64,000 bases of DNA from an uncultured Planctomycetia bacterium (GCA_964421015.1 CAYQUS010000002.1:145872-209871), one strand, 5' to 3'; positions 29,994 to 60,860 are shown, numbered from the stretch's first letter. The notes: generated by a model not told the origin, from the sequence alone. Numbers and translations are program-made.

Positions 29994-30827
29994 ATGACAG
30001 GCCTTAAATATAAAAAGTGGACAGTGGAAAGTCCCCGCGGGGCCTTAGTGCTTGTGCACGGTATGGGCGCTGGAACGGAGAGATGGGAAAGCCTTGCCGA
30101 ATACTTTCTTTCGAAAAATATCTCCTCATATGCTCTTTCTCTCCGTGGGTTCGACGGAACCGAAGGCGAGAAGGGGTATGTCGACAGTTTCCAGACGTAC
30201 CATTCCGACATAAAAAAACTTTATGAACTCGCCCGAAGAGAAGTTCCCACAGGTAAGATCTTTCTTCTAGGCGAAAGCATGGGGGCTTTAATAGCCTTTG
30301 ACCATGCCGCGCAAGGCGAGGGGCTTTTTGATGGATATATCCTTATTTCCCCGGCTTTCGGGAGCCGGCTTAAGTTCAATCCGCACGTGTATCTCTTTAT
30401 TCTTCTCTCGATGCTGTTCTTCCCTCGAAAACAGTTCAAAATGCCGTTTAATTCCAGGATGTGCACGAGTGACAGAGGAGAGATAGAGAAAATAGAAAAA
30501 GATCCGGCGGAACACCGGTATGCTACAGGTAGCCTTCTCCGGGAAATACTCAAAAAACAGGTGATGGCAAAAAAACTGGCTAAAAAAATAACTTCGCCGG
30601 TACTTTTTCTTTTATCCGAGGAAGACGAGTTAGCGGACCCCGCGCGGAGTGAGAAGGTTTTTGAAGTTTTAGGACACATTGGTGCCAGGCACCACAGGTG
30701 CCAGGCACCAAACAACAACCTTAAGAAGTATCCTGGGATGAAGCATGCGCTGTCTGTAGAGGCGGGGCGCGAGAGGGTTTTTGAGGATATTTATGAGTGG
30801 GGACAGAAGTTAGAAGGGAGAAAGTAG
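29994..30827 (+). CDS. alpha/beta-hydrolase (lysophospholipase/monoacylglycerol lipase-like)
   Basis: HGMGAGTERW and GESMGALIAF (GxSxG) motifs. The C-terminal region carries an in-frame palindromic repeat insertion encoding HIGARHHRCQAPNN. Confidence 0.75.
   Translation: MTGLKYKKWTVESPRGALVLVHGMGAGTERWESLAEYFLSKNISSYALSLRGFDGTEGEKGYVDSFQTYHSDIKKLYELARREVPTGKIFLLGESMGALIAFDHAAQGEGLFDGYILISPAFGSRLKFNPHVYLFILLSMLFFPRKQFKMPFNSRMCTSDRGEIEKIEKDPAEHRYATGSLLREILKKQVMAKKLAKKITSPVLFLLSEEDELADPARSEKVFEVLGHIGARHHRCQAPNNNLKKYPGMKHALSVEAGRERVFEDIYEWGQKLEGRK
30675..30709. repeat. second pair of GGTGCCAGGCACC 13-bp palindromes, inside the 3' end of the hydrolase CDS
   Basis: CACATTGGTGCCAGGCACC-ACA-GGTGCCAGGCACC, read in-frame as GARHHRCQAP. 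Confidence 0.85.
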
Positions 30828-30925
30828 AAAGGAGAAAGAGGAAAGGAGAAATGGGAAAGAGGAGAAAGGGGAAAGTGATAGGTTAAGGTTGAGGTTCAGG
30901 TTGAGAGAGAGGGGGAGTAGAGGGA
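30811..30925 (+). repeat. purine-rich (GGAGAAAGG)n + (AGGTTG)n intergenic repeat module, copy A
   Basis: AGAAGGGAGAAAGTAGAAAGGAGAAAGAGGAAAGGAGAAATGGGAAAGAGGAGAAAGGGGAAAGTGATAGGTTAAGGTTGAGGTTCAGGTTGAG. Its first ~17 nt lie inside the hydrolase CDS (stop at 30825-27). Confidence 0.8.
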
Positions 30926-30928
30926 ACC

Positions 30929-31049
30929 GTCATTCTGAGCCGTAGGCGAAGAATCTAGATCCTTCGGTCGCGTTGCTCCCTCAGGATGACAAGAGAAAGG
31001 GGACTCTCTCAGGATGACAAGTGAAAGGGGGCTCCCCCAGGATGACAAA
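30929..31049 (+). repeat. GTCATTCTGAGC...CTCAGGATGAC hairpin module followed by three tandem CAGGATGACAA units
   Basis: Inverted repeat GTCATTCTGAG / CTCAGGATGAC (30929-30990). CAGGATGACAA recurs at 30982, 31010 and 31038. Confidence 0.75.
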
Positions 31050-31134
31050 TAGGGTTGTCGCAATAACGCCGAACGCTATAACGCAATAACGAATAAGTAT
31101 CGAGAATCGAATATCGTGATGTCGAGGGAGGAGT

Positions 31135-32613
31135 ATGAAGTATATACTTGCGATAGATCAGGGGACTACGGGGTCTCGGGCAGTGATTTACGACAGAAAG
31201 GGGTTTGAGGTTGCCAGTCATTACAACGAATTTAAGCAGTATTTTCCCCATCCTGGGTGGGTAGAGCATGACGCGGATGAAATATGGGAGAGTGTTAATA
31301 AAAGTATACAGAAAGTCCTGTCAAAGATCCCCTCTGAAAATATAGAAGCGATAGGAATAACCAATCAGCGAGAGACGGTGGTTCTTTGGGATAGGGCTAC
31401 GGGAAAACCGGTGACCAAGGCTATAGTCTGGCAGTGCAGAAGAACAGCCGATAGATGCGAAAAGATAAAGCGAAATAAAAAACTCCGGGAAATAATATTC
31501 CAAAAAACAGGACTTCCCGTAGACGCATATTTTTCGGCGAGCAAAATAGAGTGGCTTTTGAGAAGCCATCCTAATATAAGGAAAAAAGCCGATAGAGGCG
31601 ATATTGTTTTCGGCACGATGGATTCGTGGCTTCTCTGGAAACTTACAGGGGGAAAGGCTCATGCCACGGACCACACGAACGCTTCAAGGACAATGCTTTT
31701 TAATATAAACACTAAAAAGTGGGACAAAGAGCTTCTTCGTGTTTTTAATGTTCCGGAAGCGATGACGCCCGAAGTAAAGAAATCGTCGGGTGTTTTTGGT
31801 TACACTGAAAAAATAGGCTGGCTAAAAGCGGGGATCCCTATCTCCGGGATCGCTGGAGACCAGCAGGCGGCGCTTTTCGGCCAGGCATGTTTTAATAAAG
31901 GAGACATAAAGAACACTTACGGCACGGGATGTTTTATGCTTCTTAATTCCGGAAAGAAAAAACCTAAAGGTAAAAACGGGCTAATAATTACTTTGGGATG
32001 CGGAAAAACCGGGGAACCGGTTTATGTTCTTGAGGGGGCTATTTTCATAGCGGGAGCGGCGATACAATGGCTTAGGGATTATCTTGGCATATTGTCATCC
32101 TCGGCTGAGTCGAGAGAAATGGCCGAAAAAGTTAAAGATAACGGAGGGGTGTATTTTGTGCCGGCTCTTGTGGGGCTTGGAGCCCCGCACTGGAAAAGCG
32201 ACGCAAGAGGTCTTATAACCGGAATAACACGCGGAACAAAAAGAGAGCATATAGTCAGAGCCGCTATAGAGGCGATGTGCTATCAGACAAAAGACGTTCT
32301 TGATGTAATGAAAAAAGAGGCCGGCGTGAATGTAAAGTCTTTAAAAATAGACGGCGGCGCGGCGAAGAATGATTTTTTGTGCGCTTTTCAATCTGATATA
32401 CTCGGGATGGATGTTGTGAGGCCCAGAGTTACGGAAACAACTTCTTTAGGAGCGGCGTATTTGGCGGGGCTCGGGACAGGGTACTGGAAAAATACCGGGG
32501 AGATAAGAAAGTGTTGGAAAGCCGATAAGGTGTTCCAGCCGGCCATGAAGCCGGCGAAACGCGAAGCGCTTATCGATGGATGGGAAAAGGCGGTGGCGAG
32601 GGCCGTGTTGTAG
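31135..32613 (+). CDS. glpK: glycerol kinase
   Basis: ILAIDQGTTGSRAVIYD...; FGGY-family motifs throughout. Confidence 0.9.
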   Translation: MKYILAIDQGTTGSRAVIYDRKGFEVASHYNEFKQYFPHPGWVEHDADEIWESVNKSIQKVLSKIPSENIEAIGITNQRETVVLWDRATGKPVTKAIVWQCRRTADRCEKIKRNKKLREIIFQKTGLPVDAYFSASKIEWLLRSHPNIRKKADRGDIVFGTMDSWLLWKLTGGKAHATDHTNASRTMLFNINTKKWDKELLRVFNVPEAMTPEVKKSSGVFGYTEKIGWLKAGIPISGIAGDQQAALFGQACFNKGDIKNTYGTGCFMLLNSGKKKPKGKNGLIITLGCGKTGEPVYVLEGAIFIAGAAIQWLRDYLGILSSSAESREMAEKVKDNGGVYFVPALVGLGAPHWKSDARGLITGITRGTKREHIVRAAIEAMCYQTKDVLDVMKKEAGVNVKSLKIDGGAAKNDFLCAFQSDILGMDVVRPRVTETTSLGAAYLAGLGTGYWKNTGEIRKCWKADKVFQPAMKPAKREALIDGWEKAVARAVL

Positions 32614-32689
32614 AGAGAAGTAGAAAGAGGGAAGGAGAAAGTGGAAAAGGATAGGTTTAGGCCCAGGTTCAGGTTGAGCCGAAGGGGTG
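32614..32689 (+). repeat. purine-rich + AGGTTSAG repeat module, copy B (after glpK)
   Basis: AGAGAAGTAGAAAGAGGGAAGGAGAAAGTGGAAAAGGATAGGTTTAGGCCCAGGTTCAGGTTGAGCC. Confidence 0.75.
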
Positions 32690-32710
32690 GCAACTAGGGC
32701 GTAGGTAAGG

Positions 32711-32851
32711 CAGCAGATTTCCGATATTTCCGGAAGGGCGTTGGTCGACCGAGCGGGCACGGATTCCGAGGGAGAGCGAGGGAGAGCATCGAGCGAGATT
32801 TCCACGCCGGGGAAATCGAGCGTCCCTGAAGGGAATGTCGGAAATCTGCTG
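32711..32851 (-). repeat. solo MITE-like copy of the 55-kb repeat unit, bounded by 18-bp terminal inverted repeats
   Basis: CAGCAGATTTCCGATATT ... AATGTCGGAAATCTGCTG. The interior aligns in reverse orientation to 55090-55235 (GAGCGGGCACGGAT..GGAGAGCGAGGGAGA..CGAGCGAGATTT..GAAAATCGAGCGTCCCTGAAGGGAAT). Confidence 0.8.
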
Positions 32852-32876
32852 ACAGACGCACATTATCGCTAAACTA

Positions 32877-34322
32877 ATGATGAGACAGGAAAACATGAAA
32901 TATGACGTTGTGATAATAGGCGCGGGGGTTACGGGATGCGCGATAGCTCGGGAGCTTTCCAAATACGAGCTCTCTATAGCTGTTCTTGAAAAAGAAGAAG
33001 AGCCGGCTTTCGGAGTTTCGAAATCCAATAGCGGGATAATACATCCCGGCACGCAGAATTCTCCGGATTCCCTGAAAGGGAAGCTTTGCGTAAGAGGTAA
33101 TATTTTGACGCGCAAGATGTCTCGCGACCTGGGAGTTGAGGTAAAAGAAGTAGGGGAGCTGATTGTCGCTTTTGGGGAAGATGAGATGAAAGAGCTTAAG
33201 AGAATAAAGACTGATGCCGAAAAGCTTCGTGTTCCGGGGCTCAGGATAGTCGGGAAAGCCTGGCTTAAAAAAAGAGAACCGAACCTTAGCGCGGAGATAG
33301 TCGCGGCGCTCTATTCCCCGACAGCATGCATAATAAGCCCTTACCGGTGGGCATACGCCTTGGCTGAAAACGCTGTTCGTAACGGCGCAGAAATGCGCTT
33401 AAACACTGAAGTCACGGGAATAAAGAAAGAAAGAGCCGGCGGAGTTTTCGTGATATCCTCAGGTTCCGGCATTTTTGAGGCCAGATACGTCATTAACGCA
33501 GCCGGGCTTTTTGCCGACAAAGTTTCCGCTATGGCCGGAGTGGATAGTTTTAAGATAACGCCCAGAAAAGGCGAAGAATTCCTTCTTGATAAAAAAAGAG
33601 AATATATCACGAGACATCTTATTTTCCCTCTCCCGTCAGAAAAGTCAAAGGGGGTTCTTGTAATAAAAACTTCCGACGGAAATCCCATGATAGGGCCTAC
33701 CGCCGAAGATACAGATGACAAGAACGATCTAACTACGACAAGCGAAGGTCTTGAAAAGGTGGTCGCCTCCGTGCAGAAAATGGTGCCGGCAATAGACCCT
33801 GCCGACATAATAGCTTATTTCGCGGGACTCAGGCCTGTTGCCGGAAAGGATTTTATAATTAGGCATGAGGAAAAACTTCCGGGGTTTGTAAATGTAGCGG
33901 GGATACAGTCGCCGGGGCTTACGGCATCTCCGGCAATAGCTGAAATGGTGCGGGATATCCTTAAAGCGAACGGACTTCTTTTAAAGAAAAAGAAAAACTT
34001 TCATTCGAAACGAAAAAGAACTAAACATCTATTTGATATGGCCATAAAGAACATAAAGAAAGCTGTAAAAGAAGACCCGGATTACGGGGACATAGTCTGC
34101 CGGTGCGAGACTGTATCTAAAAAGGAGATAGTGGATGCTATTGCCAGGGGAGCCAGGACGCTTGACGGCATAAAGTTCCGAACTCGCGCTCAGGCAGGCA
34201 GATGCCACGGAAGTTTTTGTACGGCCCGGATACTACGCATTCTGGCGGAGGAGCGCAATGTGCCGTTTAAGGAAATAACTAAGCGGGGGAAAGGGTCGGA
34301 GGTTGTGAAGGGGGAGAAATAG
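32877..34322 (+). CDS. glpA: FAD-dependent glycerol-3-phosphate dehydrogenase/oxidase-like subunit with C-terminal BFD-like [2Fe-2S] domain
   Basis: VVIIGAGVTGCAIAREL dinucleotide fold. C-terminal CRCE..C..C BFD-like motif. Start could alternatively be the ATG at 32895. Confidence 0.75.
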   Translation: MMRQENMKYDVVIIGAGVTGCAIARELSKYELSIAVLEKEEEPAFGVSKSNSGIIHPGTQNSPDSLKGKLCVRGNILTRKMSRDLGVEVKEVGELIVAFGEDEMKELKRIKTDAEKLRVPGLRIVGKAWLKKREPNLSAEIVAALYSPTACIISPYRWAYALAENAVRNGAEMRLNTEVTGIKKERAGGVFVISSGSGIFEARYVINAAGLFADKVSAMAGVDSFKITPRKGEEFLLDKKREYITRHLIFPLPSEKSKGVLVIKTSDGNPMIGPTAEDTDDKNDLTTTSEGLEKVVASVQKMVPAIDPADIIAYFAGLRPVAGKDFIIRHEEKLPGFVNVAGIQSPGLTASPAIAEMVRDILKANGLLLKKKKNFHSKRKRTKHLFDMAIKNIKKAVKEDPDYGDIVCRCETVSKKEIVDAIARGARTLDGIKFRTRAQAGRCHGSFCTARILRILAEERNVPFKEITKRGKGSEVVKGEK

Positions 34323-34510
34323 AAAGAAAAGAGAAGATAGAAGATAGAAAGGAGAAAGAGGAAAGGAGAAAGGGGAAAGAGGAGAAAGGAAAAGGAGAAG
34401 TGAGAAAGCGATAGGTTAAGGTTGAGGTTTAGGTTGAGGTGTTGGGACGTCATTCTGAGCCAAAGGCGAAGAATCTAGATCCTTCGTTCGCTTTGCTCAC
34501 TCAGGATGAC
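34323..34510 (+). repeat. purine-rich + (AGGTTG)n module plus GTCATTCTGAG hairpin module, copy C (after glpA-like)
   Basis: ..GGAGAAAGAGGAAAGGAGAAAGGGGAAAGAGGAGAAAGG..GATAGGTTAAGGTTGAGGTTTAGGTTGAGG.. then CGTCATTCTGAGCCAAAGGCGAAGAATCTAGATCCTTCG..CTCACTCAGGATGACAG. Confidence 0.8.
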
Positions 34511-34588
34511 AGAGAGGGGTTCAACCGGGATTATAGTGCGTTGTTTTTTGGTGCCAGGCGCCGAAGAGAGCAGATATCTTGGAGAAAA

Positions 34589-35560
34589 ATGGAAAAGCGT
34601 GATCTTGTCATAGTTGGAGGCGGACCGGCGGGGATGGCCGCGGCGCTAGCGGCCCAGGAAGCCGGAGTAAGGGATATCCTTCTTCTTGAAAGGGACAGGT
34701 TCCTTGGAGGCATACTGAACCAGTGCGTTCATACCGGGTTCGGGGTGGAATATTTCAAGGAGATACTGACCGGACCTCAATATGCCGAGAGGTTTGAGAA
34801 TATGGCGCGAGGCGCGAAAGGCATCGAAATAGCTTTAAGGTCTTTTGTGATAAAGCTGACCAAAGACAAAAAAATAACCGCGATCTCGCCCGGTAACGTG
34901 AGGGAGATCAGAGCCGGAGCGGTGATAATGGCCACTGGATGCCGAGAAAGAACAAGAGAGATGATACATGTTCCGGGTACGCGTCCGGCGGGCGTGTTTT
35001 CAGCGGGGCTCGCGCAGAAACTGATAAATATCGAAGGACTTCTCCCCGGGAGAGAAGTCGTGATAATAGGGTCCGGGGATATCGGGCTTATTATGGCGAG
35101 GCGATTCACTCTTGAAGGCTCAAGGGTGAAGGCCATAATAGAGATAAATTCTAAAGTCACCGGTCTTACGCGTAATGTTGCCCAGTGCGCCGAAGATTTT
35201 GATATCCCTATTTTTCTTGAACATAAAGTTACGGAAATAATAGGGAAAAACCGTGTTGAGGCTGTACGGGCCGCGAAAGTCGATGCTTCGGGTAAAAGCC
35301 TGCCGGGAACAGAAATGGAATGGGCCTGCGACACGGCGCTTTTTTCCGTGGGGCTTATCCCGGAGAACGAACTTATAGAGATGGCCGGTGTAAAGATAGA
35401 TAAAAAAACAAATACGCCCGTGTCCAGCGAGATCAACAGGACCTCTATCCCCGGCATATTCGTATGCGGCAATTCTTACAAGATATATGACATCGTGGAT
35501 GACGTAACTAAAGACGCCGAGATAGCGGGACGCCAGGCGGCGGAATATTTACGGAGATAG
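34589..35560 (+). CDS. NAD(P)/FAD-dependent pyridine nucleotide-disulfide oxidoreductase (glpB-like partner)
   Basis: LVIVGGGPAGMAAAL and a second Rossmann motif VVIIGSGDIG. GGAG RBS before the ATG at 34589. The ORF-track start lies upstream in the repeat region. Confidence 0.7.
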   Translation: MEKRDLVIVGGGPAGMAAALAAQEAGVRDILLLERDRFLGGILNQCVHTGFGVEYFKEILTGPQYAERFENMARGAKGIEIALRSFVIKLTKDKKITAISPGNVREIRAGAVIMATGCRERTREMIHVPGTRPAGVFSAGLAQKLINIEGLLPGREVVIIGSGDIGLIMARRFTLEGSRVKAIIEINSKVTGLTRNVAQCAEDFDIPIFLEHKVTEIIGKNRVEAVRAAKVDASGKSLPGTEMEWACDTALFSVGLIPENELIEMAGVKIDKKTNTPVSSEINRTSIPGIFVCGNSYKIYDIVDDVTKDAEIAGRQAAEYLRR

Positions 35561-42120: not shown

Positions 42121-42403
42121 GACCATAATCGAGATAATAGTGAACAATCATCCGGGCGTGATGTCCCATATAACGGGGCTTTTCGCGAGGAGGGCTTACA
42201 ATCTTGAGGGGATACTGTGCGGCGAAATAGAGGACGGGTCCCGGAGCAGGATGTATCTTCTGGTGGATGAGGACGAGAGGCTGGAACAGATAATAAAACA
42301 GATAGAAAAACTTTATGACGTTATTACAGTTAATGCAAGGGGTGACAGGGACCATACCATATTCAAAAAACTGGATAAGGCTATGGAGATTTTTGGGGGA
42401 TAG
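42104..42403 (+). CDS. ilvN: acetolactate synthase small (ACT-domain) subunit, short form
   Basis: ACT-domain sequence IIEIIVNNHPGVMSHITGLFARRAYNLEGI. 99 aa. Overlaps the end of ilvB. Confidence 0.75.
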   Translation: MKEGSKTIIEIIVNNHPGVMSHITGLFARRAYNLEGILCGEIEDGSRSRMYLLVDEDERLEQIIKQIEKLYDVITVNARGDRDHTIFKKLDKAMEIFGG

Positions 42404-42819: not shown

Positions 42820-42880
42820 TTGAGGGGAAGACCGGTAAAAAATAAGGAGAAAGGTAGAATAGGGAGGGAGGAAATGACAG
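42820..42880 (+). repeat. purine-rich + AGGTTAAAGTTGAG module, copy D
   Basis: AATAAGGAGAAAGGTAGAATAGGGAGGGAGGAAATGACAGGTTAAAGTTGAGCC. Confidence 0.65.
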
Positions 42881-49445: not shown

Positions 49446-50053
49446 AAAAAGATTTTCTGAAAGGGCTTTGGAAAGAGAATCCCATTTTCGTACAGGTCCT
49501 CGGGACATGTCCCACCCTGGCAGTAACTACAAAAGCAGTGTTCGGTCTTTCCATGGGGATAGCCACAACGTTCGTTCTGATCTCATCAAGCTTAGTTGTA
49601 TCTCTCATAAGGAAAGTCGTTCCGCCGCAGGTGAGAATACCCATGTTTACCGTTATAATAGCCACTTTTGTCACCGCCGCCGATTATTTCCTTAAGGCCA
49701 ATTTTTATGAGATAAGCAAGGCCCTGGGGCCGTATGTTCCTCTTATAGTAGTGAACTGCATAATACTCGGCAGAGCCGAAGCTTTTGCTTCCAAGAACGG
49801 GCCGGTAAGGTCGGTGCTGGACGCTCTCGGAATGGGGCTAGGGTTTACCTCGGCGCTACTGGTCCTGGGCAGCTGCCGTGAGATACTCGGTTCCGGGGCT
49901 ATTTTCGGATTGAGGGTTATGCCGCAGGGGTTCACCAACTGGATAGTGATGATACTTCCCGCGGGAGCGTTCATTACTTTCGGACTTCTGGTAGGGGTTT
50001 TTAACACGGTTGACGGAATGATCAAGAAGAGGGAAGAGGTTAAGGTTAAGTAG
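49442..50053 (+). CDS. rnfE: Rnf complex subunit E
   Basis: RnfA/RnfE-family 6-TM protein (NPIFVQVLGTCP). Position is after rnfG. Confidence 0.8.
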   Translation: MKKDFLKGLWKENPIFVQVLGTCPTLAVTTKAVFGLSMGIATTFVLISSSLVVSLIRKVVPPQVRIPMFTVIIATFVTAADYFLKANFYEISKALGPYVPLIVVNCIILGRAEAFASKNGPVRSVLDALGMGLGFTSALLVLGSCREILGSGAIFGLRVMPQGFTNWIVMILPAGAFITFGLLVGVFNTVDGMIKKREEVKVK

Positions 50054-50174
50054 GAAGAGAGGAGAAATAAGTAGTAAGTAGTAAGGAATAAGGAGTAAGG
50101 AGTAAGGAGAAAAGAGAAAAGAAGGTTGAGGCAGTGAGGGGATCAAGGTTCAGGTTGAGGTTTAGAGGGGAGCG
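50054..50174 (+). repeat. purine-rich (AGTAAGGAG)n + AGGTTCAGGTTGAGGTT module, copy F, inside the rnf operon between rnfE and rnfA
   Basis: GGAAGAGAGGAGAAATAAGTAGTAAGTAGTAAGGAATAAGGAGTAAGGAGTAAGGAGAAAAGAGAAAAGAAGGTTGAGG..GATCAAGGTTCAGGTTGAGGTTTAGAGGGGAGCG directly before the rnfA ATG. Confidence 0.8.
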
Positions 50175-50762
50175 ATGAATATAGAACATCTCATACTCAT
50201 TTTTGTGGCGGCGAGCGTAACCAATAACTTCGTTCTCACGTATTTTCTCGGGATATGTCCTTTTATAGGAGTTTCCAACAAGATAGAGAGCGCCGTGGGG
50301 CTTGGAACAGCCACGACTTTTGTAATGACGATGGCCGCTGCCTTTACGTGGCTTATCTACCATTACATACTTGTTCCTTATGAACTGGTCTTTCTGCAGT
50401 ACGCCACGTTCATAATAGTCATAGCGAGTTTTGTCCAGTTCGTGGAGATGGTCATAAGAAAGATCTCTCCGGCATTACATAAGGCGCTGGGTATATTTCT
50501 GCCGCTGATAACGACCAATTGCGCCATACTCGGACTTACGCTTTTTATGGTCCTGCGCGATTACGCGTTCCTGGAATCGGTTATTTTCGGTCTGGGAGCC
50601 GGGGTTGGGTTCACCCTCGCTCTGGTGCTGATGGCCGGAATAAGGGAGGAGCTTGAATTCACGGATATTCCCCCAGCCTTAAAAGGAACAGGAATAACGC
50701 TGATACTCGCGGGGATGCTCGCTCTGGCTTTCATGGGTTTCGGCGGACTTATAAGCGGGTAA
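50175..50762 (+). CDS. rnfA: Rnf complex subunit A
   Basis: RnfA/NqrE family (NNFVLTYFLGICPFIGVS). Confidence 0.8.
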   Translation: MNIEHLILIFVAASVTNNFVLTYFLGICPFIGVSNKIESAVGLGTATTFVMTMAAAFTWLIYHYILVPYELVFLQYATFIIVIASFVQFVEMVIRKISPALHKALGIFLPLITTNCAILGLTLFMVLRDYAFLESVIFGLGAGVGFTLALVLMAGIREELEFTDIPPALKGTGITLILAGMLALAFMGFGGLISG

Positions 50763-50796
50763 AACCAGAGCTCACAGCGACAGAAAAGAGAAAAAT

Positions 50797-51603
50797 ATGG
50801 AAAATTTAGTAGTAACGTCGGTAATAAGCATGGTTTTTCTGGCGGTTTTTTTCGCCGTGGTGCTGGCTTTTGCCGATAAGAAATTCAAGGTCCAGGAAGA
50901 TCCCCGCGTGGTAGGCGTATACGGTTTTTTGCCTCACGTTAACTGCGGGGCATGCGGGTATTTAAGCTGCCACGATTTCGCCGAACGCATAATAAAAGAA
51001 GGAGAGAGCCCTCTTAAGTGCAGAGTGCTCGGAGAAGAAGCAAGAGAAGGTCTTTTGAATTATCTGGGGCATGATTCCGGCGAGACTTTTCCGCATGTGC
51101 CTCTTGTAAGGTGTTCCGCAAGATGCGCTAATAAGCCCTCTTCCGCGGAATACCTGGGTATACGCACCTGCCGCGGCGCGGCGGTATCTTTCTCGGGAGG
51201 GATGGAATGCGAGTACGGTTGCATGGGGTTCGGGGATTGTGTTAAAGCCTGTCCTTTCGGAGCGCTTGAGATAGTCGACGGGCTTCCCGAAGTCGATCAG
51301 GCGAAATGCACCGGGTGCGGCAAATGCGCCTCGGCCTGTCCCAAGGGGATAATAACAATAGCGGAAAAAAGGAACGAAAAGGTCTTTTATGTGGCCTGTT
51401 CCACTCATGACGGGGCTTTGAGAGTGCGAAAAATATGCGCCGTTGGCTGTATAGCTTGCGGCATCTGCGAAAAGATCTCCAAAGAGGGGTTTTTCTCGGT
51501 TAAAGACAACCTTTCGAGAGAGGATCTTTCTAAACAGGCCAGGCAGGAAGAAGTAGCCGCGGTGGCCGCGAAGTGCCCCACTAAGGTAATAAAAACCGCG
51601 TAA
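50797..51603 (+). CDS. rnfB: Rnf complex subunit B
   Basis: N-terminal TM anchor, a CxxC...C cluster and two 4Fe-4S ferredoxin motifs. Confidence 0.8.
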   Translation: MENLVVTSVISMVFLAVFFAVVLAFADKKFKVQEDPRVVGVYGFLPHVNCGACGYLSCHDFAERIIKEGESPLKCRVLGEEAREGLLNYLGHDSGETFPHVPLVRCSARCANKPSSAEYLGIRTCRGAAVSFSGGMECEYGCMGFGDCVKACPFGALEIVDGLPEVDQAKCTGCGKCASACPKGIITIAEKRNEKVFYVACSTHDGALRVRKICAVGCIACGICEKISKEGFFSVKDNLSREDLSKQARQEEVAAVAAKCPTKVIKTA

Positions 51604-51613
51604 CGGAGAAAGC

Positions 51614-52228
51614 ATGCCAGAGAAAATAAAAATAGCCGTGCTGGTTTCGGGTAACGGCAGCAATCTCCAGGCGATAATAGACGCCCAGGCAAATGGCGAC
51701 CTGGGGCCTGCCGAGATCGGGATAGTCATAAGCGATAAACCGGAAGCGTTGGCTCTCGAGAGAGCCGCCAAGGCCGGGATAAAGTCCGTGGTCGTCGAGA
51801 AGACCAAAGAGCTTTCCAGGGAAGAGTATGACGAGAAGCTTGCCGTTATCCTGAGAGAAGAGGAGATAAACCTTATTGTGCTGGCCGGGTTCATGAGGGT
51901 GCTAGGGGAAAAGTTTGTCGGCGCGTTCAAATGGAAGATAATCAACATCCATCCCGCGCTTCTCCCGGCTTTCAAGGGAACCCATGGCATAGCCGACGCG
52001 TTCCTCTACGGGGTAAAGGTAACGGGCGTGACGGTGCACTTTGTGGACGAAGGGGTTGATTCCGGACCCATAATAGCGCAGAGGGCGGTAAAAATAGAGG
52101 ACACTGATACGCTTGGGTCCCTTGAGGAAAGGATGCATCACCGGGAACACGAGCTTTATCCGGAAGTGATACGCCTTTTCGCCGAAGGCAGGATAAAACT
52201 GGAAGGAAGAAAAGTAAAGATAGTCTAA
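51614..52228 (+). CDS. purN: phosphoribosylglycinamide formyltransferase
   Basis: IAVLVSGNGSNLQAI and NIHPALLPAFKG motifs. Confidence 0.9.
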   Translation: MPEKIKIAVLVSGNGSNLQAIIDAQANGDLGPAEIGIVISDKPEALALERAAKAGIKSVVVEKTKELSREEYDEKLAVILREEEINLIVLAGFMRVLGEKFVGAFKWKIINIHPALLPAFKGTHGIADAFLYGVKVTGVTVHFVDEGVDSGPIIAQRAVKIEDTDTLGSLEERMHHREHELYPEVIRLFAEGRIKLEGRKVKIV

Positions 52229-52233
52229 AATAA

Positions 52234-53792
<1,559 letters not shown>

Positions 53793-53817
53793 TTTTTGTC
53801 CGCTTTCAGGAAAGGTC

Positions 53818-54738
53818 CTATCTAGGGTAGATCTTAAGCCCGGATGTGGCTCCGCGAGAAGAACAGACCATGGCGGCAAGCCGGGAAGCGAACGCCAGAT
53901 TAAGAGTCATTTCGTTCCAGAAAGCCTCTTTCCCTTCAAGACAATATCTTAAGATGAGACCCGCGGTGAAAGCGTCACCTGCCCCTATGGTGTCCACAAC
54001 ATCTACTTTTACCGCCGGGAATTTAAGAATGTCGCGGCCGTCCCAGTAGAGGGAGCCGTCCTCTCCCATTGTCAGGATGGTTTTTCCGGGAAGTTTCCTG
54101 AGAGCGGAAGGCAAAGTCTTTTTCCCCGTTATTCCCATAGCATCGGAAGCGCTCAGCTTTATCACGTCGGCCAGTTCAAAAAACTTTTCCACGCGCCGGC
54201 GCGCCGTGCGTTTGTCTTTAATTCGGGATTCTCTCCAGTTGGGGTCGTATGTAGCGAACATACGTTTTTCCTTCGCCGCTTCCATCATCTCAAGAGCGCT
54301 TTCGAAAGTGAAATCGGAGTAGGAGAAAGATGACCCGGTATGAAAAACCCCGTTTTCCGAAAACGACGAAAGAAGCGTCTTAGAGGGCGACAGCGCTATT
54401 TCCGGTCCGGTATCTCTGTAGAAAGCGTAGGAGGAATCGCCCTTACTGTCTATGCGGGCTATGGCAAGAGCTGTTTTGAGCCGGTCGTCCCTTTTGATAT
54501 GTCTTGTGGATATTTTCTCTTTGCGCATAACATCGACCAAGCTGTCCGAAAGAAAATCAGAGGCAAGGCGGGAAACGACCGACACATCCAGGCCCAGGCG
54601 GGCCAGCATGATGGAAACATTGAATACCGATCCTCCCGGACAGGCTTCCATTGAGTAGCCGCCTTCGGAGTTCGGCCTTGTGATAACAAGGTCATACGCT
54701 ATGTTCCCGCAGCAGAATACGCGTTTTTTGCGTGCCAT
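53818..54738 (-). CDS. PfkB-family carbohydrate kinase
   Basis: N-terminus FCCGNIAYDLV and C-terminus DVVDTIGAGDAFTAG, the anion-hole GAGD motif. Confidence 0.75.
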   Translation of the reverse strand: MARKKRVFCCGNIAYDLVITRPNSEGGYSMEACPGGSVFNVSIMLARLGLDVSVVSRLASDFLSDSLVDVMRKEKISTRHIKRDDRLKTALAIARIDSKGDSSYAFYRDTGPEIALSPSKTLLSSFSENGVFHTGSSFSYSDFTFESALEMMEAAKEKRMFATYDPNWRESRIKDKRTARRRVEKFFELADVIKLSASDAMGITGKKTLPSALRKLPGKTILTMGEDGSLYWDGRDILKFPAVKVDVVDTIGAGDAFTAGLILRYCLEGKEAFWNEMTLNLAFASRLAAMVCSSRGATSGLKIYPR

Positions 54739-54867
54739 GACAGATAATGATATCATCACTTTGCCGGTTTTACAACTTTTCCATTCGTTTTTGGTTTTCT
54801 CCGCCAGTTTGCCCTTGCGCGAGTGAATGGTATCTGATATAATTACGCCTCGGTACCTGAAAATTGA

Positions 54868-54942
54868 CGCGGGGTGGAGCAGAGGTAGCTCGTGAGGCTC
54901 ATAACCTCAAGGTCGAGGGTTCGATTCCCTCCCCCGCAACCA
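54868..54942 (+). tRNA. initiator tRNA-Met (anticodon CAU)
   Basis: Starts CGCGGGG with C1:A72 mismatch. Near-identical to the E. coli tRNA-fMet acceptor, D and T arms. Anticodon loop CTCATAA. CCA encoded. Confidence 0.8.
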
Positions 54943-55027
54943 ATATAAATATAGCGGAGATGGTCATTTACGACTGTCTCCGTTTCTTTTTTGGTTCCGA
55001 GTATAGATGTGTCCGCGCACCTGTTTC

Positions 55028-55583
55028 TCTTGTCATTCTGAGAATCTATAACTTTCGGTTTCCGCGGCTGAAGTACCGATGTGGCTGTCAAATGCCCGAT
55101 ATTCCCTTCAGGGACGCTCGATTTTCCCGGCGAGAAAATCTCGCTCGGAGGTCTCCCTCGCTCTCCCTTAGGGCTTTTGCCCTAGGGATCCGTGCCCGCT
55201 CGGGAGACCAACGCCCTTCCGGGAACACCGGGCATTTGCCTGAAAAAGACGCCTTTTTCACGGCCGAGGTGGCTTGTCATTCTGAGAATCTATAACTTTC
55301 GGTTTCCGCGGCTGAAGTACCGATGTGGCTGTCAAATGCCCGATATTCCCTTCAGGGACGCTCGATTTTCCCGGCGAGAAAATCTCGCTCGGAGGTCTCC
55401 CTCGCTCTCCCTTAGGGCTTTTGCCCTAGGGATCCGTGCCCGCTCGGGAGACCAACGCCCTTCCGGGAACATCGGGCATTTGCCCGAAGAAGACGCCTTT
55501 TTCACAGCCGAGGTGTCTTGTCATTCTGAGAATCTATAACTTTCGGTTTCCGCGGCTGAAGTTCCGAGGCGGCTGTCAAATGC
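55028..55583 (+). repeat. tandem array of about 2.3 copies of a ~245-bp structured repeat unit
   Basis: Units at 55028-55272, 55273-55516 and a partial one at 55517-55583 are near-identical. Each contains the GTCATTCTGAGAATCTA module and a TIR-like pair CAAATGCCCGATATTCC / GGAACACCGGGCATTTG. Confidence 0.85.
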
Positions 55584-55702
55584 ACTCAACCCGAACCTGC
55601 TTTTTGGCGACCTTCTAATTGACACCGCATACACAGGTATGATATAAAAAAGGTTCCCGGAGGGGTTCCCGCCGGAAAAACTATTAAACCGAGGTGCGGC
55701 AA

Positions 55703-56995
55703 ATGATAAAAAGATATTCAAGGCCCGAAATGGCCCGTATCTGGGATGAGAAAAACCGGTTCCAGAAGATGCTCGACGTTGAAATACTGGCATGCGAAGC
55801 CTTTGCCGAACTTAATATAATACCCGCCTCTGCCGCAAAGACGATAAAGGAAAAAGCGGCTTTCAGCGTAGATCGGATCAACGAGATAGAGCGCGTGACC
55901 AATCACGATGTTGTGGCCTTCATAAAAAGCGTTTCCGAGAACGTGGGCGAAGACGCCAGGTATTTTCATTACGGCCTTACTTCGAGCGATGTTCTGGATA
56001 CGGCGCTTTCCATACAGATGGTCGAGGCCGCCGATATACTGATAAGGGATATTGAGGAGCTCATAAATGCCCTTAAGAACAAGGCCATCGAGCACAAAAA
56101 AACCCCGATGATGGGCAGGTCTCACGGTGTTCACGCCGAACCCATATCTTTCGGCCTTAAGATGGCTCTTTATTACAGGGAAATGCAGCGCAATCTCGAG
56201 AGGATGAAGTCGGCCAGGAAAACCGTAGCTGTGGGAAAGATCTCAGGTTCGGTGGGAACTTTCGCTAATGTAGACCCCGGGGTGGAAGAGTACGTGTGCC
56301 GTAAGCTCGGGTTTGAATGCGCCGGCGTGGCCAATCAGGTTATACAGAGAGACAGGCACGCATATTATCTCAACGTTATAGCCATAACGGGGGCTACTCT
56401 TGAGAAGATAGCTCTCGAGATAAGGGGGCTTCAGAAAACAGAGATAGACGAAGTACAGGAATTTTTCGGCAAAGGGCAGACGGGGTCTTCGAGCATGCCC
56501 CACAAGAAAAACCCCATAATATGCGAAAGGATCACGGGGCTTGCCCGTATACTCAGAGCCAACGCCATGGCCGCCATAGAGAACGTGGCCTTGTGGCATG
56601 AAAGGGACATTTCGCACTCCTCGGTGGAACGGGTTATCCTCCCGGATTCCACTATACTTCTCGATTACATGCTGGACAAGGCGAAGGCGCTTATAACCGA
56701 CCTTGTTGTGAACAAGGACAAGATGCTTTCCAACATGGACGCGTCGAGAGGGCTTGTGTACTCTCAGCACATCATGCTTGAACTTATTAAAAAGGGAGCT
56801 ACCAGGCTCGAGGCCTACGACATCATACAGGCCGCCGCGCTGGATTGCCATTCGCGCGGGAAAACCTTCAAAGAGCTTGTGATGAAAGACGCCGGCGTGA
56901 AAAAATATCTCAGCGATAAGGAAATAGAGAACTGTTTCAGTCTGGATTATCATTTGCGTAACGTTGATCGGATATTCAAGAACATAGGACTTTGA
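55703..56995 (+). CDS. purB: adenylosuccinate lyase
   Basis: YSRPEMARIW N-terminus and fumarase/ASL-family signature SSMPHKKNP. GAGGTG RBS before the ATG at 55703. Confidence 0.9.
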   Translation: MIKRYSRPEMARIWDEKNRFQKMLDVEILACEAFAELNIIPASAAKTIKEKAAFSVDRINEIERVTNHDVVAFIKSVSENVGEDARYFHYGLTSSDVLDTALSIQMVEAADILIRDIEELINALKNKAIEHKKTPMMGRSHGVHAEPISFGLKMALYYREMQRNLERMKSARKTVAVGKISGSVGTFANVDPGVEEYVCRKLGFECAGVANQVIQRDRHAYYLNVIAITGATLEKIALEIRGLQKTEIDEVQEFFGKGQTGSSSMPHKKNPIICERITGLARILRANAMAAIENVALWHERDISHSSVERVILPDSTILLDYMLDKAKALITDLVVNKDKMLSNMDASRGLVYSQHIMLELIKKGATRLEAYDIIQAAALDCHSRGKTFKELVMKDAGVKKYLSDKEIENCFSLDYHLRNVDRIFKNIGL

Positions 56996-57006
56996 CGGGG
57001 AAAAAT

Positions 57007-58014
57007 ATGAGCGCAGCTAAAATGACCTACAAGAAAGCCGGAGTGGATATACACAGGGCCGACAGGCTGATAAAAGGTATGGCAAAGCTTATCGACACGA
57101 CGCGGGTCAAGGGAAGCATGGATTCCGTGGGAGGGTTCGGCGGGTTTTTTGACCTTGCCGCTTCCGGGGCGAAAGACCCGCTTCTTGTGGCTTCAACGGA
57201 CGGCGTGGGAACCAAGCTCAAGATAGCGGAGATAGCCGACAGGCATGATACAATAGGCATAGATCTTGTGGCCATGTGCGTTAACGACGTTCTTTGCTGC
57301 GGCGCCAGGCCCGTGTTCTTTCTGGATTATTTCGCCTGCGGCCGTCTTGAGGACAGGATATGGAACGATGTCTTAAAAGGGATAGTTGAAGGATGCCGAC
57401 AGGCTGAATGCGCGCTTCTGGGAGGAGAAACGGCGGAGATGCCGGGATTGTACAAAAAAGGCGAATATGACCTGGCCGGATTCTCTGTAGGTACGGTATC
57501 CCGCGCGAAGGTAATAGACGGAAAGAGCATAAGGCCCGGCGACGTTATTCTGGGTATCGCTTCAAGCGGGCTGCATTCCAACGGGTATTCGATGGTGCGG
57601 AAAGTTTTCAGTAAAAAAGAGATAAAAACCAGGTGGAAGGCGCTGCTTGCCCCCACGACCATATATGTAAAACCGTTCCTCGCCGTGCACGCCAAGGTCA
57701 AGATAAAAGGCGCGGCCAATATAACAGGCGGAGGGCTTTACGAGAATATACCCAGGGTTCTTCCAAAGGGGCTTAAAGCCGTAATACGTTCCGGAAGCTG
57801 GAAGGTGCCGGCCGTTTTCAGGGAAATAGCGGAAAGAAGCCAGGCCGGAAAGAGAGAGATGCACACCACATTCAATATGGGTGTTGGGATGACGCTTATT
57901 CTTTCTAAACCCGACGCGGTAAAGGCCGGAAAGATCCTGAAAGAAAAGTTCGGAATAAAGAGCAGTGTGATAGGCGACATAGTAAAAGGGCAGAGAGAAG
58001 TGGAGATAATATAG
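57007..58014 (+). CDS. purM: phosphoribosylformylglycinamidine cyclo-ligase (AIR synthetase)
   Basis: TYKKAGVDI..GGFGGFFDL motifs. Confidence 0.9.
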   Translation: MSAAKMTYKKAGVDIHRADRLIKGMAKLIDTTRVKGSMDSVGGFGGFFDLAASGAKDPLLVASTDGVGTKLKIAEIADRHDTIGIDLVAMCVNDVLCCGARPVFFLDYFACGRLEDRIWNDVLKGIVEGCRQAECALLGGETAEMPGLYKKGEYDLAGFSVGTVSRAKVIDGKSIRPGDVILGIASSGLHSNGYSMVRKVFSKKEIKTRWKALLAPTTIYVKPFLAVHAKVKIKGAANITGGGLYENIPRVLPKGLKAVIRSGSWKVPAVFREIAERSQAGKREMHTTFNMGVGMTLILSKPDAVKAGKILKEKFGIKSSVIGDIVKGQREVEII

Positions 58015-58034
58015 AACGCATGGGGGAGAGATAA

Positions 58035-59315
58035 ATGAATGTGCTTGTTATAGGTTCCGGTGGAAGAGAACACGCTTTGTGCTGGAAACTCCGGCAAAGC
58101 CCTAAGGTAGGGGATCTTTACTGCGCTCCCGGCAACGGAGGCACAGGGTTTCACGCCGCTAATGTCGATATAGACATCACAAGGCATAAAAAAGTGGTGG
58201 CCTTCTGCAAACGCAACGGGATAGATCTTGTTGTCGTGGGCCCCGAGGCTCCTCTTGCCGTGGGTATAGCGGACGACCTCAGGAAAGCCGGTGTGGCCGT
58301 TTTCGGGCCGTCTTATGCGGCCGCCAGGCTGGAGTCAAGCAAGATCTTCGCCAAAGAGATGATGGGCGGGTACAACATACCTACAGCCGGGTTCAGGGTT
58401 TTCGACAATTTCAAGAAAGCCAAGGAATACATAGACACCTGCGAGGAACCGCTTGTCGTAAAAGCCTACGGGCTAGCCGCCGGCAAGGGAGTCGTGGTGG
58501 CCAATACGAGAAAAGAGGCCGTTGACGCCGCGGAAAGAATGCTTATAAAAAAAGAGTTCAACTCCGCGGGGCAGAGGATAATAGTAGAGGAATATCTTTC
58601 CGGCAGGGAAGCATCCATAATGGTCATAACCGACGGCGAAACGATAGTTCCGCTTGCGTCGAGCCAGGACCATAAAAGAGCCTACGACGGAGACTCCGGC
58701 CCCAATACCGGAGGAATGGGAGCCTTTTCACCGACTCCAGTGATCGGCAAGAGCGAGTACGAAGAGATAATGGAGAAGATCATAAAACCTACGATCCAGG
58801 GCCTTAAGAGGGAGAGGATAGATTACAGGGGAGTGCTTTACGCGGGGATAATGATGACATCTTCCGGGCCCAAGGTGCTGGAATACAACGTCCGTTTCGG
58901 GGACCCCGAGACGCAGGTTATCCTGCCCCGTATAAAATCTGATTTCGCCGAACTTCTCATGAACACCGCTACCGGCAATCTAGCCGGCACGGAGATAGAA
59001 TGGGAAGATTCGGAGTGTGTCTGCGTGGTCATAGCCGCCGAAGGATACCCCGGGGAATATGAAAAAGGCAGAGAAGTCTCGGGGATAATAGAGGCTATGG
59101 AGACCCAGGCCATAATTTTCCACGCTGGCACGAAATACGACGGCGACAGGCTGGTCACCTCGGGGGGACGTGTCATGAACGTGGTCGGTAAAGGTCCGGA
59201 CATACGGCAGGCCACAGAAAGAGCTTACCGCGGAGCCTCAAGGATATGTTTCGAGGGGGCGTGGTACCGGAACGATATAGGAGAAAGAGAACCCAGCGAA
59301 GTAAGGAATTTTTAG
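58035..59315 (+). CDS. purD: phosphoribosylamine--glycine ligase
   Basis: [16 protein letters not shown]-terminus and ATP-grasp motifs. Confidence 0.9.
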
Positions 59316-59327
59316 GGGGTCTATCTA

Positions 59328-59830
59328 TGGCAAAAAAACCTCTGGTTAGCGTGATAATGGGCAGCGATTCCGACATGCCGGTCATGAAAGAGGCCGTCGA
59401 GGTTCTTGAGAGATTCGGCATACCATGCGAGGTCAAAATACTCTCGGCGCACCGCTGTCCCGACAAGACAGCTCTTTTCGCAAAATCCGCCAGGAAAAAA
59501 GGGATAATGGTGGTTATAGCCGCCGCCGGCGGGGCGGCTCATCTGGCCGGGGTAGTCGCGGCGCATACCACGCTTCCGGTCATAGGCGTACCAATGAGCT
59601 CACAGCTCGACGGGCTGGATTCCCTGCTTTCCACGGTTCAGATGCCCTCGGGTATACCTGTCGCCACCGTGGCCATTGGCAAGGCAGGCGCGGTTAACGC
59701 CGCCGTACTGGCCGCCCAGATCCTGGGCGTCACTTCTTCCGCTATCGCTAAAAAACTCGACGGATATAAAAAAGAGCTCGTCAGGAAAGTGGAAGAGAAG
59801 AACCGCGGTCTGGCTTCCGGCAAAAAATGA
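59328..59830 (+). CDS. purE: N5-carboxyaminoimidazole ribonucleotide mutase
   Basis: [14 protein letters not shown] and [14 protein letters not shown] motifs. The ORF-track start is upstream, inside purD. Confidence 0.9.
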
Positions 59831-60288
59831 AGAATATCCGGAAAATACTTTTTGTTTGTACCGGTAACAGCTGTCGAAGCATAATGGCGGAGGCTTACCT
59901 GGATAAACTTGCCGCGGAACAGGGGGCGGCGATAGAAGTGGAATCCGCGGGAACACTCGGTATGGAGGGGTCAAGCCCGTCCAGGGAAGTGATAACTCTC
60001 TTGGGAAAAGAGGGGATAGATCCCTCGGGATACATGTCTAAAAGCCTGACCAAAGAAATGGTGGACTGGGCGGATATAATACTCGTCATGGCTCCGGAAC
60101 ATAAGCTCGCGGTTCTCGGTCTTTCCCCTGGATCGGAGAGCAAGGTCAGGTATCTCGGCGAGTTCGATCCTGACAGGAGCGAGATGATGATCCCCGACCC
60201 CATAGGAAGGCCTATGGCCTTTTACATGTCTTCGTTCAACGTTATAAAACGATCAGTGAAGGAGCTTTTGAGATGGCTGGAAAAATAG
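59827..60288 (+). CDS. low-molecular-weight protein-tyrosine phosphatase / ArsC-like
   Basis: Active-site P-loop [17 protein letters not shown]. Confidence 0.8.
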
Positions 60289-60737
60289 CGATAGGGTCAG
60301 ACCACGGGGGGTTCGCGCTTAAAGAGTTTCTGTCGGGGAAACTTAAAGAATGGGGCTACAAGGTATACGACGCGGGCACTGATTCTCCCGAACCCTGCGA
60401 TTATCCCGTCACAGGGTTCAAATGCGCCTCCAGGGTATCGGAGAAAAAAGAACCGAGGGGCATACTTATCTGCCGGACGGGAGTCGGCATGGCGGTTATA
60501 GCCAATAAACTCCCCGGAGTAAGGGCCGGGGTCTGCGGCAAAGTTTCGGAAGCCGTTTCTGCCAGGGAACACAACGACATAAACCTGCTGGTGCTTGCGG
60601 CCGACAGGATATCTAGAGACGACGCGGAGGCGACGGTAAAAGCGTGGCTCGAGACCCCGGCGCTCAAGGGCCGGCACGCCAAAAGAGTGCGGCTCATCAA
60701 GGAGTATGAGAAGAAAGTGTTCAGGGGGAAGAAATAA
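60273..60737 (+). CDS. rpiB: ribose-5-phosphate isomerase B
   Basis: [15 protein letters not shown] and RpiB/LacAB-family sequence. Confidence 0.85.
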   Translation: MAGKIAIGSDHGGFALKEFLSGKLKEWGYKVYDAGTDSPEPCDYPVTGFKCASRVSEKKEPRGILICRTGVGMAVIANKLPGVRAGVCGKVSEAVSAREHNDINLLVLAADRISRDDAEATVKAWLETPALKGRHAKRVRLIKEYEKKVFRGKK

Positions 60738-60860
60738 GGAGAAAGGAGTAAGGAGAAAGGAGTAAGGAGTAAGAGGAAAAGAAGGGTAAGACAGTGAAAC
60801 TGCCTAGTCGAACTGTCCCCGGCAATAGGGAGGGGACTAAGGTTGAGGTTAAGGGGAAGG
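60738..60860 (+). repeat. purine-rich (AGGAGTAAGGAG)n + AAGGTTGAGGTTAAGG module, copy G, between rpiB and glyA
   Basis: AAGGAGAAAGGAGTAAGGAGAAAGGAGTAAGGAGTAAGAGGAAAAGAAGGGTAAG...GGACTAAGGTTGAGGTTAAGGGGAAGGAG directly before the glyA ATG. Confidence 0.8.

Follow-up and report, generated by a model that had tools for sequence, protein, structure and literature searches.

A family of composite repeats at gene ends

Seven loci in a 64,000-nucleotide (nt) stretch of DNA from an uncultured bacterium recorded as Planctomycetia (GCA_964421015.1 CAYQUS010000002.1:145872-209871; hereafter the window, with positions counted from its first letter) carry a composite element, in which a purine-rich tract is followed by AGGTTN hexamers ending in GAG. 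The loci, at 30811, 32614, 34323, 42820, 43390, 50054, and 60738, were named in an earlier note on this DNA, and when read directly, each had this composition. The composite is a genuine interspersed family that occurs far above chance and is not a product of chance low complexity. It is a real, undescribed repeat family, the behavior of which is closest to those of MIRU, BOX, BIME, and STRR. It is probably, although not securely, a mosaic repeat that expanded recently within a single Candidatus Omnitrophota lineage, to which it is specific, and that spread by copy-and-paste, its one-sided orientation reflecting a survival filter. The description in the earlier note is largely right, and the function inferred there is not supported by the comparative data.

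Counts of the element, including those of orientation, refer to the 64-kb window, in which nearly all genes are on the + strand. The sequence AGGTTNAGGTTGAG, with up to two mismatches allowed, matched 15 times (1.46 expected), a number reached in none of 100 shuffles, and 14 of the 15 matches were on the + strand inside the named loci. The Shine–Dalgarno (SD)-like 14-mer RRAGGAGWAAGGAG matched 28 times (7.1 expected), always on the + strand and 23 times inside the loci. Purine runs (at least 27 of 30 bases) were found on the + strand only, the seven loci being the longest (39–112 nt). Tandem Repeats Finder assigned a period of 7 to the purine tracts (AGAAAGG, TAAGGAG), with heptamer arrays of four to nine copies at six loci, and a period of 6/12 to the AGGTT module. 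Across the copies, the C content was 1–9%, with 4–16 SD cores per copy and one to seven stop codons in each of the three frames.

A repeat comparison within the window gave 80–85% identity between loci and distinguished two subfamilies, each with its own non-repetitive junction common to its copies. Subfamily A (30811, 32614, and 34323) has AGAAAGG-type heptamers and the junction GAAAGYGATAGGTT, whereas subfamily B (50054 and 60738) has TAAGGAG-type heptamers and the junction GAAAAGAAGGKTRAGRCAGTGA, with 81% identity over 69 nt; the copies at 42820 and 43390 are short forms. The copies at 30811 and 34323 are approximately 85% identical over approximately 190 nt, including a 64-nt hairpin located 3' of the module. 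Because non-repetitive junctions are common to several loci, the loci must be copies of one another rather than independent low-complexity growths. When an orphan AGGTT module (described below) is included, all eight copies lie within 30.8–60.9 kb, three of them in consecutive spacers of the glp cluster, and none occurs in the first 30 kb (1–30000), a distribution that suggests local spread.

Turnover of the element among strains and relatives

The homologues of RnfE and RpiB for which source names were available were almost all from Candidatus Omnitrophota, and the bacterium of the window is itself assigned to that phylum. A second strain was represented by two Logan contigs from run SRR27544757, L001 (99.2% identical to the window) and L250 (99.4%). 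In L250, the copies at 42820 and 43390 are identical to those of the window, and the rnfE–rnfA element is 14 nt, or exactly two heptamers, shorter. In L001, the rpiB–glyA element is of equal length and differs by six substitutions within 23 nt; three successive GGAG cores read GTAG, so that the GGAG cores fall from five to two and the tract resembles the rnfE-type copy. The SD content is therefore not conserved in this sibling strain. As heptamer tracts differ between nearly identical strains, they could serve as strain markers in metagenomes. Just upstream of the same element, the 3' coding end of rpiB (60599–60680) shows 30 further mismatches in 82 nt between L001 and the window, a cluster that, judged from the alignment, is likely a recombination tract.

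The earlier note held that two copies interrupt otherwise tight operons, between rnfE and rnfA and between rpiB and glyA, and this was borne out by relatives that have spacers of 30–38 nt there. In three Omnitrophota contigs with 76–79% identical RpiB (L251, L253, and L255), the rpiB–glyA spacer is 30–31 nt long, contains one GGGAG, and lacks the element. In relatives with 85–86% identical RnfE, the rnfE–rnfA spacers are 34–70 nt long and differently filled, either with a GTGCCTGGCAC palindrome or with CGCTAGG/CTATACG heptamers (L245–L247), and in a relative with 90% identical RnfE, an AGGTT array across the stop codon is followed by the GTGCCTGGCAC palindrome and then by GTATTGA heptamers; across L242–L247, the rnfE–rnfA element is absent or different. 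The glp cluster is similarly compact in L246, where the hydrolase gene overlaps glpK and a single nucleotide separates glpK from glpA, compared with 307 and 263 nt at these junctions in the window. Approximately 49 kb of sequence from RpiB relatives contained no purine-tract element and only one AGGTT array; downstream of this array lie GTATTGA heptamers and one copy of the 64-nt hairpin. The contrast between filled sites in the window and empty or differently filled sites in relatives means that the elements are recent lineage-specific gains with fast turnover. At the filled sites, replacement extends over the entire spacer and into the final codons of the preceding gene, which differs from a clean insertion with duplication.

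Other repeats also occupy gene ends in this lineage. A palindromic repeat, GTGCCAGGCACC...GGTGCCTGGCAC, brackets the hydrolase gene of the window (29902–29949 and 30668–30711), with one copy inside its 3' coding part; it fills the rnfE–rnfA spacer in L242–L244, and in L244 it codes for the C-terminus of RnfE and its stop codon. Spacer arrays with other units of 7–8 nt, namely CGCAATAA, CTATACG/CGCTAGG, and GTATTGA, were also observed (window 31059–31096; L245 9471–9506; L242 1688–1707; L251 3590–3620), and because every unit contains a stop triplet, these arrays have stops in all three frames.

Position of the element relative to stop and start codons

The elements had been described as placed right after stop codons, which is nearly but not exactly the case: they start 10–25 nt before the stop, so that in the copies with an upstream gene, the last 4–8 codons and the stop codon itself lie within the purine tract. 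The element thus supplies the stop codon of the upstream gene. Five of the six upstream genes end in TAG, compared with 11 of the 37 other + genes. Orientation on the coding strand of the upstream gene, which the earlier note considered invariable, applies to six of the seven copies; the copy at 42820 lies 3' of a minus-strand tRNA-Arg gene and is co-directional only with the downstream tadA. All seven composites are nevertheless co-directional with an adjacent gene.

The relationship to downstream genes is looser. The element leads into the ribosome-binding site of rnfA and glyA, as had been noted, but not into that of the glpB-like gene. Because the Pfam domain of the latter begins at residue 55 of the long open reading frame (ORF), its start is most likely the ATG at 34589, and the element is therefore approximately 150 nt from the ribosome-binding site, a distance that includes the 64-nt hairpin repeat. 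Four of the seven copies have no directly following co-directional start. Upstream of tadA, the end of the module, TTGAGC (42888–42893), forms a −35-like hexamer, and the earlier proposal that the module supplies the −35 element of the tadA promoter agrees with the pattern match TTGAGC-17-TATAAT at 42888–42916 (10 of 12 positions).

Both subfamily B elements contain a mini-ORF on the + strand that begins with GTG and whose TGA overlaps the next ATG as ATGA: one of 14 codons (50134–50178), ending on rnfA and still open in strain L250, and one of 25 codons (60794–60871), starting at the conserved CAGTGA junction and ending on glyA. Because an A follows the start codon in 51% of the + genes of the window, approximately half of all starts would be expected to give ATGA, and the overlap is weak evidence of coupling. 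Mini-ORF coupling was not upheld as a general rule, as it occurs in two of the seven copies and no mini-ORF was found in the related composites L205 and L224.

RNA structure and associated hairpin modules

The purine/AGGTT elements are predicted to be essentially unstructured as RNA, with minimum free energies of −1.1 kcal/mol over 121 nt (30805–30925) and −7.9 kcal/mol over 146 nt (50045–50190). A G-quadruplex was also considered and rejected: none was predicted, ViennaRNA with G-quadruplexes enabled added nothing, and the native tracts folded worse than composition-matched shuffles. The idea that the AGGTT array acts as a hairpin or terminator in the window was likewise rejected, because the array has no inverted partner on the + strand of the window and no terminator-like site was present in the rnfE–rnfA or rpiB–glyA spacers. 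In a scan of the window with the Rfam covariance models, tRNAs alone reached the gathering score; at E ≤ 1, nothing matched over the elements in 30700–34700 and 49900–61000, and the copies at 42820 and 43390 were covered by the gathering-score scan only.

In four of the eight cases, a structured module is located 3' of the AGGTT array. The 64-nt hairpin module GTCATTCTGAGCC...CTCAGGATGAC occurs at 30928–30991 (+; −24.1 kcal/mol), with 11-bp inverted ends and a right arm that is partly triplicated at 30976–31048, and again at 34448–34511 (+; 92% identical to the first copy; −25.8 kcal/mol); no target-site duplication was evident at either window copy. In relatives L251/L252, a 98.4% identical copy (L251 3682–3743) also lies downstream of an AGGTT array, even though RpiB is only 79% identical, suggesting that the hairpin is a mobile or recently exchanged small palindromic element. 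The GTCATTCTGAAC motif was also seen 3' of an AGGTT array in an unrelated metagenome contig, L219. A longer hairpin of approximately 140 nt follows the 32614 element in the glpK–glpA spacer (32711–32851, +; −70.5 kcal/mol, z = −5.7). Inverted copies of this hairpin, together with a GTCATTCTGAGAATC segment, form a tandem array of 2.3 units of 244 bp at 55029–55583, between tRNA-Met and purB.

Origin, orientation, and possible function

The family more probably consists of repetitive DNA that is tolerated than of a regulatory device that is required, because close relatives run the same operons without the element. Its modules are a C-free tract of 7-nt SD-like units (AGAAAGG/TAAGGAG), a short specific junction, an (AGGTTN)n array ending in GAG, and often a palindromic hairpin. 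We take the spread of such composites from gene end to gene end by copy-and-paste as demonstrated, and its route may have been recombination or gene conversion, or a transposition. Incoming copies have taken the place of the final codons of the upstream gene, of its stop codon, and of the spacer behind it, after which the heptamer tract gains and loses units by slippage, as a variable-number tandem repeat (VNTR) does. The clustered substitutions probably reflect conversion between copies. The elements themselves may ride passively in mRNA. In the sense orientation, they would add an unstructured, almost C-free RNA that contains stops in every frame, offers SD motifs so that the downstream cistron is still translated, and presents little C to Rho, whereas a reversed element would introduce into operons a long, unstructured stretch that is rich in C and U, resembles an anti-SD sequence, and would also suit the loading of Rho well. 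We infer that the one-sided orientation is a survival filter on what mRNA can carry, and it is better explained by such selection on mRNA content than by a required ribosome-standby function. The −35 hexamer of tadA, and possibly the coupled mini-ORFs before rnfA and glyA, would be exaptations rather than the reason for the family.

Several points weigh against this interpretation. No transposase, terminal inverted repeats, or target-site duplication was found for the purine/AGGTT part, and the effects on Rho loading and anti-SD pairing that underlie the orientation filter are ones that we infer. The orientation bias rests on few independent events, within 64 kb where genes are nearly all on the + strand, which is also positive in GC skew. 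With a skew of approximately +0.14, the coding strand in the window is the G- and A-rich, presumably leading, strand, so that transcription-linked and replication-linked orientation cannot be told apart here. The ATGA ends of the two mini-ORFs would be in keeping with a device designed for coupling. Finally, purine-tract composites with AGGTTR arrays recur at stop codons in unrelated contigs, including one from Bacteroidota, and this cross-phylum recurrence could reflect repeated selection for a function.

The earlier note reasoned that strand bias together with multiple SD motifs points to a function at the RNA level. In its fullest form, this would make the element an adaptive one, its C-free multi-SD tract acting as a ribosome standby or re-initiation platform or as a 5' stabilizer that boosts or uncouples downstream translation, with the mini-ORF of subfamily B delivering ribosomes via ATGA. 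The 4–16 SD cores and three-frame stops of each copy, the predicted lack of RNA structure, and the three copies that lead into the next ribosome-binding site or promoter (rnfA, glyA, and tadA) are all in keeping with such a role, as are the similar composites at the stop codons of unrelated contigs and the two mini-ORFs that end on a downstream start, as in MIRUs (PMC12548453). We consider it unlikely, although it deserves to be kept in view, because relatives manage with spacers of 30–38 nt and one SD motif, or with junctions that lack the element altogether, and strains that are 99.2–99.4% identical differ in heptamer number, with three GGAG-to-GTAG changes leaving two of the five GGAG cores in the 99.2% identical strain. 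Moreover, the subfamily A copies are 150–250 nt from the next start with stable hairpins between, the 43390 copy faces a convergent gene, and with them the copies without a directly following start come to four of seven. The composites L205 and L224 lack the mini-ORF, and ATGA is expected at about half of starts in any case. A similar composite also occurs in a Bacteroidota contig, and SD-led initiation is generally unimportant in that phylum. The companion argument, that a purely selfish repeat should lack strand bias, starts from a weak premise. If the adaptive reading were true, the element would be a natural portable intercistronic spacer that sustains translation, which would be relevant to translational coupling and to synthetic operon design.

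Purely local growth, in which slipped-strand duplication of a stop/SD junction (TAA + GGAG giving TAAGGAG) expanded microsatellites in tight operons with no dispersal, seems rather improbable. Its appeal is that the TAAGGAG unit is indeed a stop codon plus an SD motif, that unit number varies between strains, that the rnfE–rnfA junction carries different heptamer arrays in relatives (CGCTAGG/CTATACG in L245–L247 and GTATTGA near L242), and that composites recur in unrelated contigs. Slippage accounts for the growth of tracts but not for a family, as it leaves unexplained the non-repetitive junctions common to the loci of subfamilies A and B, the two loci that are approximately 85% identical over approximately 190 nt including the hairpin, and the 42820 copy, which has no preceding stop codon; the A/B split also suggests subfamilies that cut across loci. 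Very improbable is a target of a trans-acting factor, either a GGA-rich RNA that titrates a small RNA or a protein resembling CsrA or Hfq, or an AGGTTR array with a 6-nt/12-nt period that binds a protein as DNA. The many GGA/ARN-type motifs, the regular 6/12-nt period, and the frequency of AGGTTR arrays in the intergenic DNA of many phyla would suit such a target, but motif number, spacing, and sequence are not conserved between strains, the element is absent from relatives, neither a CsrB-type nor any other Rfam match was obtained, intergenic AGGTTR arrays elsewhere show no orientation preference among the matches listed, and no candidate partner was identified. The possibility raised in the earlier note that the repeats are low-complexity tails translated as extensions of the upstream ORFs can be practically dismissed, as can read-through or recoding of the stops. 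Each tract does encode the genuine C-terminus of the upstream protein in its first 4–8 codons, and an AGGTT array codes for the tail EEVKVK of RnfE; translation of the bulk of the element is refuted by the one to seven stops per frame in every copy, a 7-nt period fits no reading frame, and TAA, TAG, and TGA all serve as stops in ordinary genes of the window.

If the family is indeed a recently expanded mosaic repeat held in one orientation by what mRNA can carry, it represents a previously undescribed family of repeats in a candidate phylum that has been little studied, and a clear case of repeats remodeling the 3' ends of genes, supplying stops and stretching operon spacers while leaving the operon unbroken.

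Comparison with known repeat families

The earlier note did not recognize the family among REP, BIME, ERIC, Correia, or RUP elements as described. There was no match to an Rfam family, and instead of the imperfect palindrome of 21–65 bp with a stable stem–loop that characterizes REP/BIME, the composite folds with only −1.1 kcal/mol over 121 nt, the neighboring hairpin modules alone being palindromic. Literature searches by sequence strings and by topic found no paper describing the family. The composite also lacks the terminal inverted repeats and target-site duplication of a miniature inverted-repeat transposable element.

MIRU is closest in behavior. MIRUs lie interspersed in operons, where they share transcripts with the genes on either side and have the orientation of the gene to which they are coupled; their ends overlap the stop and start codons of these neighbors, a −4 overlap links an internal ORF to the start that follows, their copy number varies between strains (the basis of MIRU-VNTR typing), and they are absent from homologous sites in relatives (PMC12548453; PMC3184786). 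The present element is likewise intercistronic and co-oriented (rnfE–rnfA, rpiB–glyA, and three glp junctions), varies in unit number (by two heptamers in L250), has empty sites of 30–31 nt (L251, L253, and L255), overlaps the upstream stop, and contains ATGA-coupled mini-ORFs in two of the seven copies. It nevertheless falls outside the definition of a MIRU unit, which is 40–100 bp long with an internal ORF overlapping the flanking stop and start. MIRU units are GC-rich with internal inverted repeats, whereas the units here are unstructured, contain no C, and measure 6–7 nt; the sequences are not similar, the phylum is different, and the coupled ORF is not general.

The BIMEs of enterobacteria, which are mosaics of REP, and the BOX elements of pneumococci resemble the family in having few module types in a fixed order (here purine tract, junction, AGGTT array, and hairpin module), a variable number of the middle module, and a location at gene ends and in operons; BIME and BOX are also transcribed. 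Their defining modules are palindromic and fold stably, whereas the two core modules here do not fold. The STRR of heterocystous cyanobacteria are tandem heptanucleotide arrays dispersed over many intergenic regions, and the tandem heptamer arrays in intergenic DNA found here are of that type, a resemblance of kind and not of homology. The STRR have different units, belong to another phylum, and are not described as composites with hexamer arrays or as overlapping stop codons. Stab-SD elements, or 5' SD-like mRNA stabilizers, and ribosome standby sites are SD-like, unstructured, untranslated mRNA segments that can bind the 30S subunit; they are single, conserved, and experimentally defined, whereas the arrays here are variable and missing from relatives, and the likeness therefore concerns only a possible mode of action.

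Similar composites in other lineages

We scanned public genomes for (AGGTTN)3 and metagenome contigs for the composite pattern, and the counts from both scans are given among the matches listed. Arrays of (AGGTTN)3 were common in public genomes, and half of the matches were coding, mostly antisense, with NAACCT giving P[EKQ] repeats; none of those listed was from the window's own genome. The 66 intergenic matches showed no orientation preference: 22 were antisense and 15 sense to both neighbors, 10 lay in convergent gaps, and five in divergent gaps. Many of the matches to the composite pattern were coding stretches rich in E, K, and V. The matches also included composites that are clearly non-coding and begin close to or at the stop codon of a co-directional ORF (L147, L156, L198, L222, L123, L205, and L240), and the composites in L060 and L064 likewise begin at or near such a stop. 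Such composites derived from Omnitrophota, Syntrophaceae, several unassigned metagenome contigs, and one Bacteroidota contig (L060), which has a GGAGGTA/GGAGATA heptamer tract followed by AGGTTAAGGTTGAGGTTAAGG and is genuinely from Bacteroidota, because its neighboring MocR gene is closest to Chitinophagaceae proteins. A search with nhmmer and a 34-nt core profile, a profile too insensitive for this purpose, gave one match.

Horizontal spread, a mutational bias common to these lineages, or selection acting repeatedly may underlie this recurrence across phyla. A bolder reading, to which we attach little probability, is that the composites form a cross-phylum class of intercistronic RNA spacer. 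Stop codons would have acquired it again and again because it offers ribosomes an unstructured landing pad that is proof against Rho, ends upstream translation in every frame, and hands ribosomes on to the next cistron, the Omnitrophota family being the amplified version of one lineage. Operons would then have a general means of accepting spacers with no polar effect. The recurrence at stop codons across phyla is the part most worth following.

Intergenic (AGGTTR)n arrays were frequent in many phyla, including Bacteroidota, Desulfobacterota-type "Deltaproteobacteria", Nitrospirota, Kiritimatiellia, and Omnitrophota (loci L002–L121, e.g., L006, L007, and L003; also L153, L222, and L237). They often pair with a YTYARCCT-type arm to give a G·U-rich, strand-specific hairpin followed by a T run (e.g., Omnitrophota L070, 2293–2360, in which the array is the 5' arm), and from their sequences these hairpins look like terminators built from hexamer repeats.

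Individual copies and neighboring features

All seven composites in the window are on the + strand. In the subfamily A element at 30805–30905, an AGAAAGG heptamer tract extends over the last codons of the alpha/beta hydrolase gene and its TAG stop (30825–30827), after which come the junction GAAAGTGAT and the AGGTT module (30880–30905); the element has a C content of 1% and contains 11 SD cores and stops in three frames. A shorter subfamily A element at 32609–32678, 80% identical to 30860–30914, spans the glpK stop (TAG, 32611–32613), and its AGGTT module (32653–32678) includes one degenerate unit (GGCCC). The longest subfamily A copy (34304–34438) spans the TAG (34320–34322) of the DAO/BFD glpA-like gene and ends in the AGGTT module at 34413–34438. 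The short forms flank tadA, one lying between the minus-strand tRNA-Arg and tadA (42837–42892) and the other spanning the tadA stop (43371–43425; TAG, 43387–43389). The complement of the AGGTT module of the latter (43412–43425) codes for the end codons and TAA (43415–43417) of the convergent NlpC/P60 gene.

The subfamily B element of the rnfE–rnfA spacer (50026–50167) consists, in order, of a coding AGGTT array (50037–50050), the TAG stop (50051–50053), TAAGGAG/TAAGTAG heptamers, the junction GAAAAGAAGGTTGAGGCAGTGA, and the AGGTT module (50146–50165). That of the rpiB–glyA spacer (60722–60860), which is 81% identical to 50069–50137, has, in order, the TAA stop (60735–60737), TAAGGAG/AAAGGAG heptamers, and the junction GAAAAGAAGGGTAAGACAGTGA, then 45 nt of unique inserted sequence before the AGGTT module (60840–60853). 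The eighth AGGTT module, the orphan GCAGGTTCGGGTTGAG at 55585–55603, is on the minus strand between two + genes, has no purine tract, and adjoins the inverted 244-bp tandem repeat. Among the neighboring genes, Pfam confirmed the alpha/beta hydrolase, glpK, the DAO/BFD glpA-like gene, the Pyr_redox gene, tadA, the convergent NlpC/P60 gene, rnfE, rnfA, rpiB, and purB, and the identity of glyA was confirmed separately.

Near the 42820 copy, a perfect 94-nt direct repeat occurs at 42395–42488 and 42602–42695, with 207 nt between the starts of its two copies. The final 15 nt of the second copy coincide with the 3' end of the tRNA-Arg gene (42681–42757, minus strand), and by its sequence, the repeat looks like the duplicated tRNA-end attachment site of a small integrated element.

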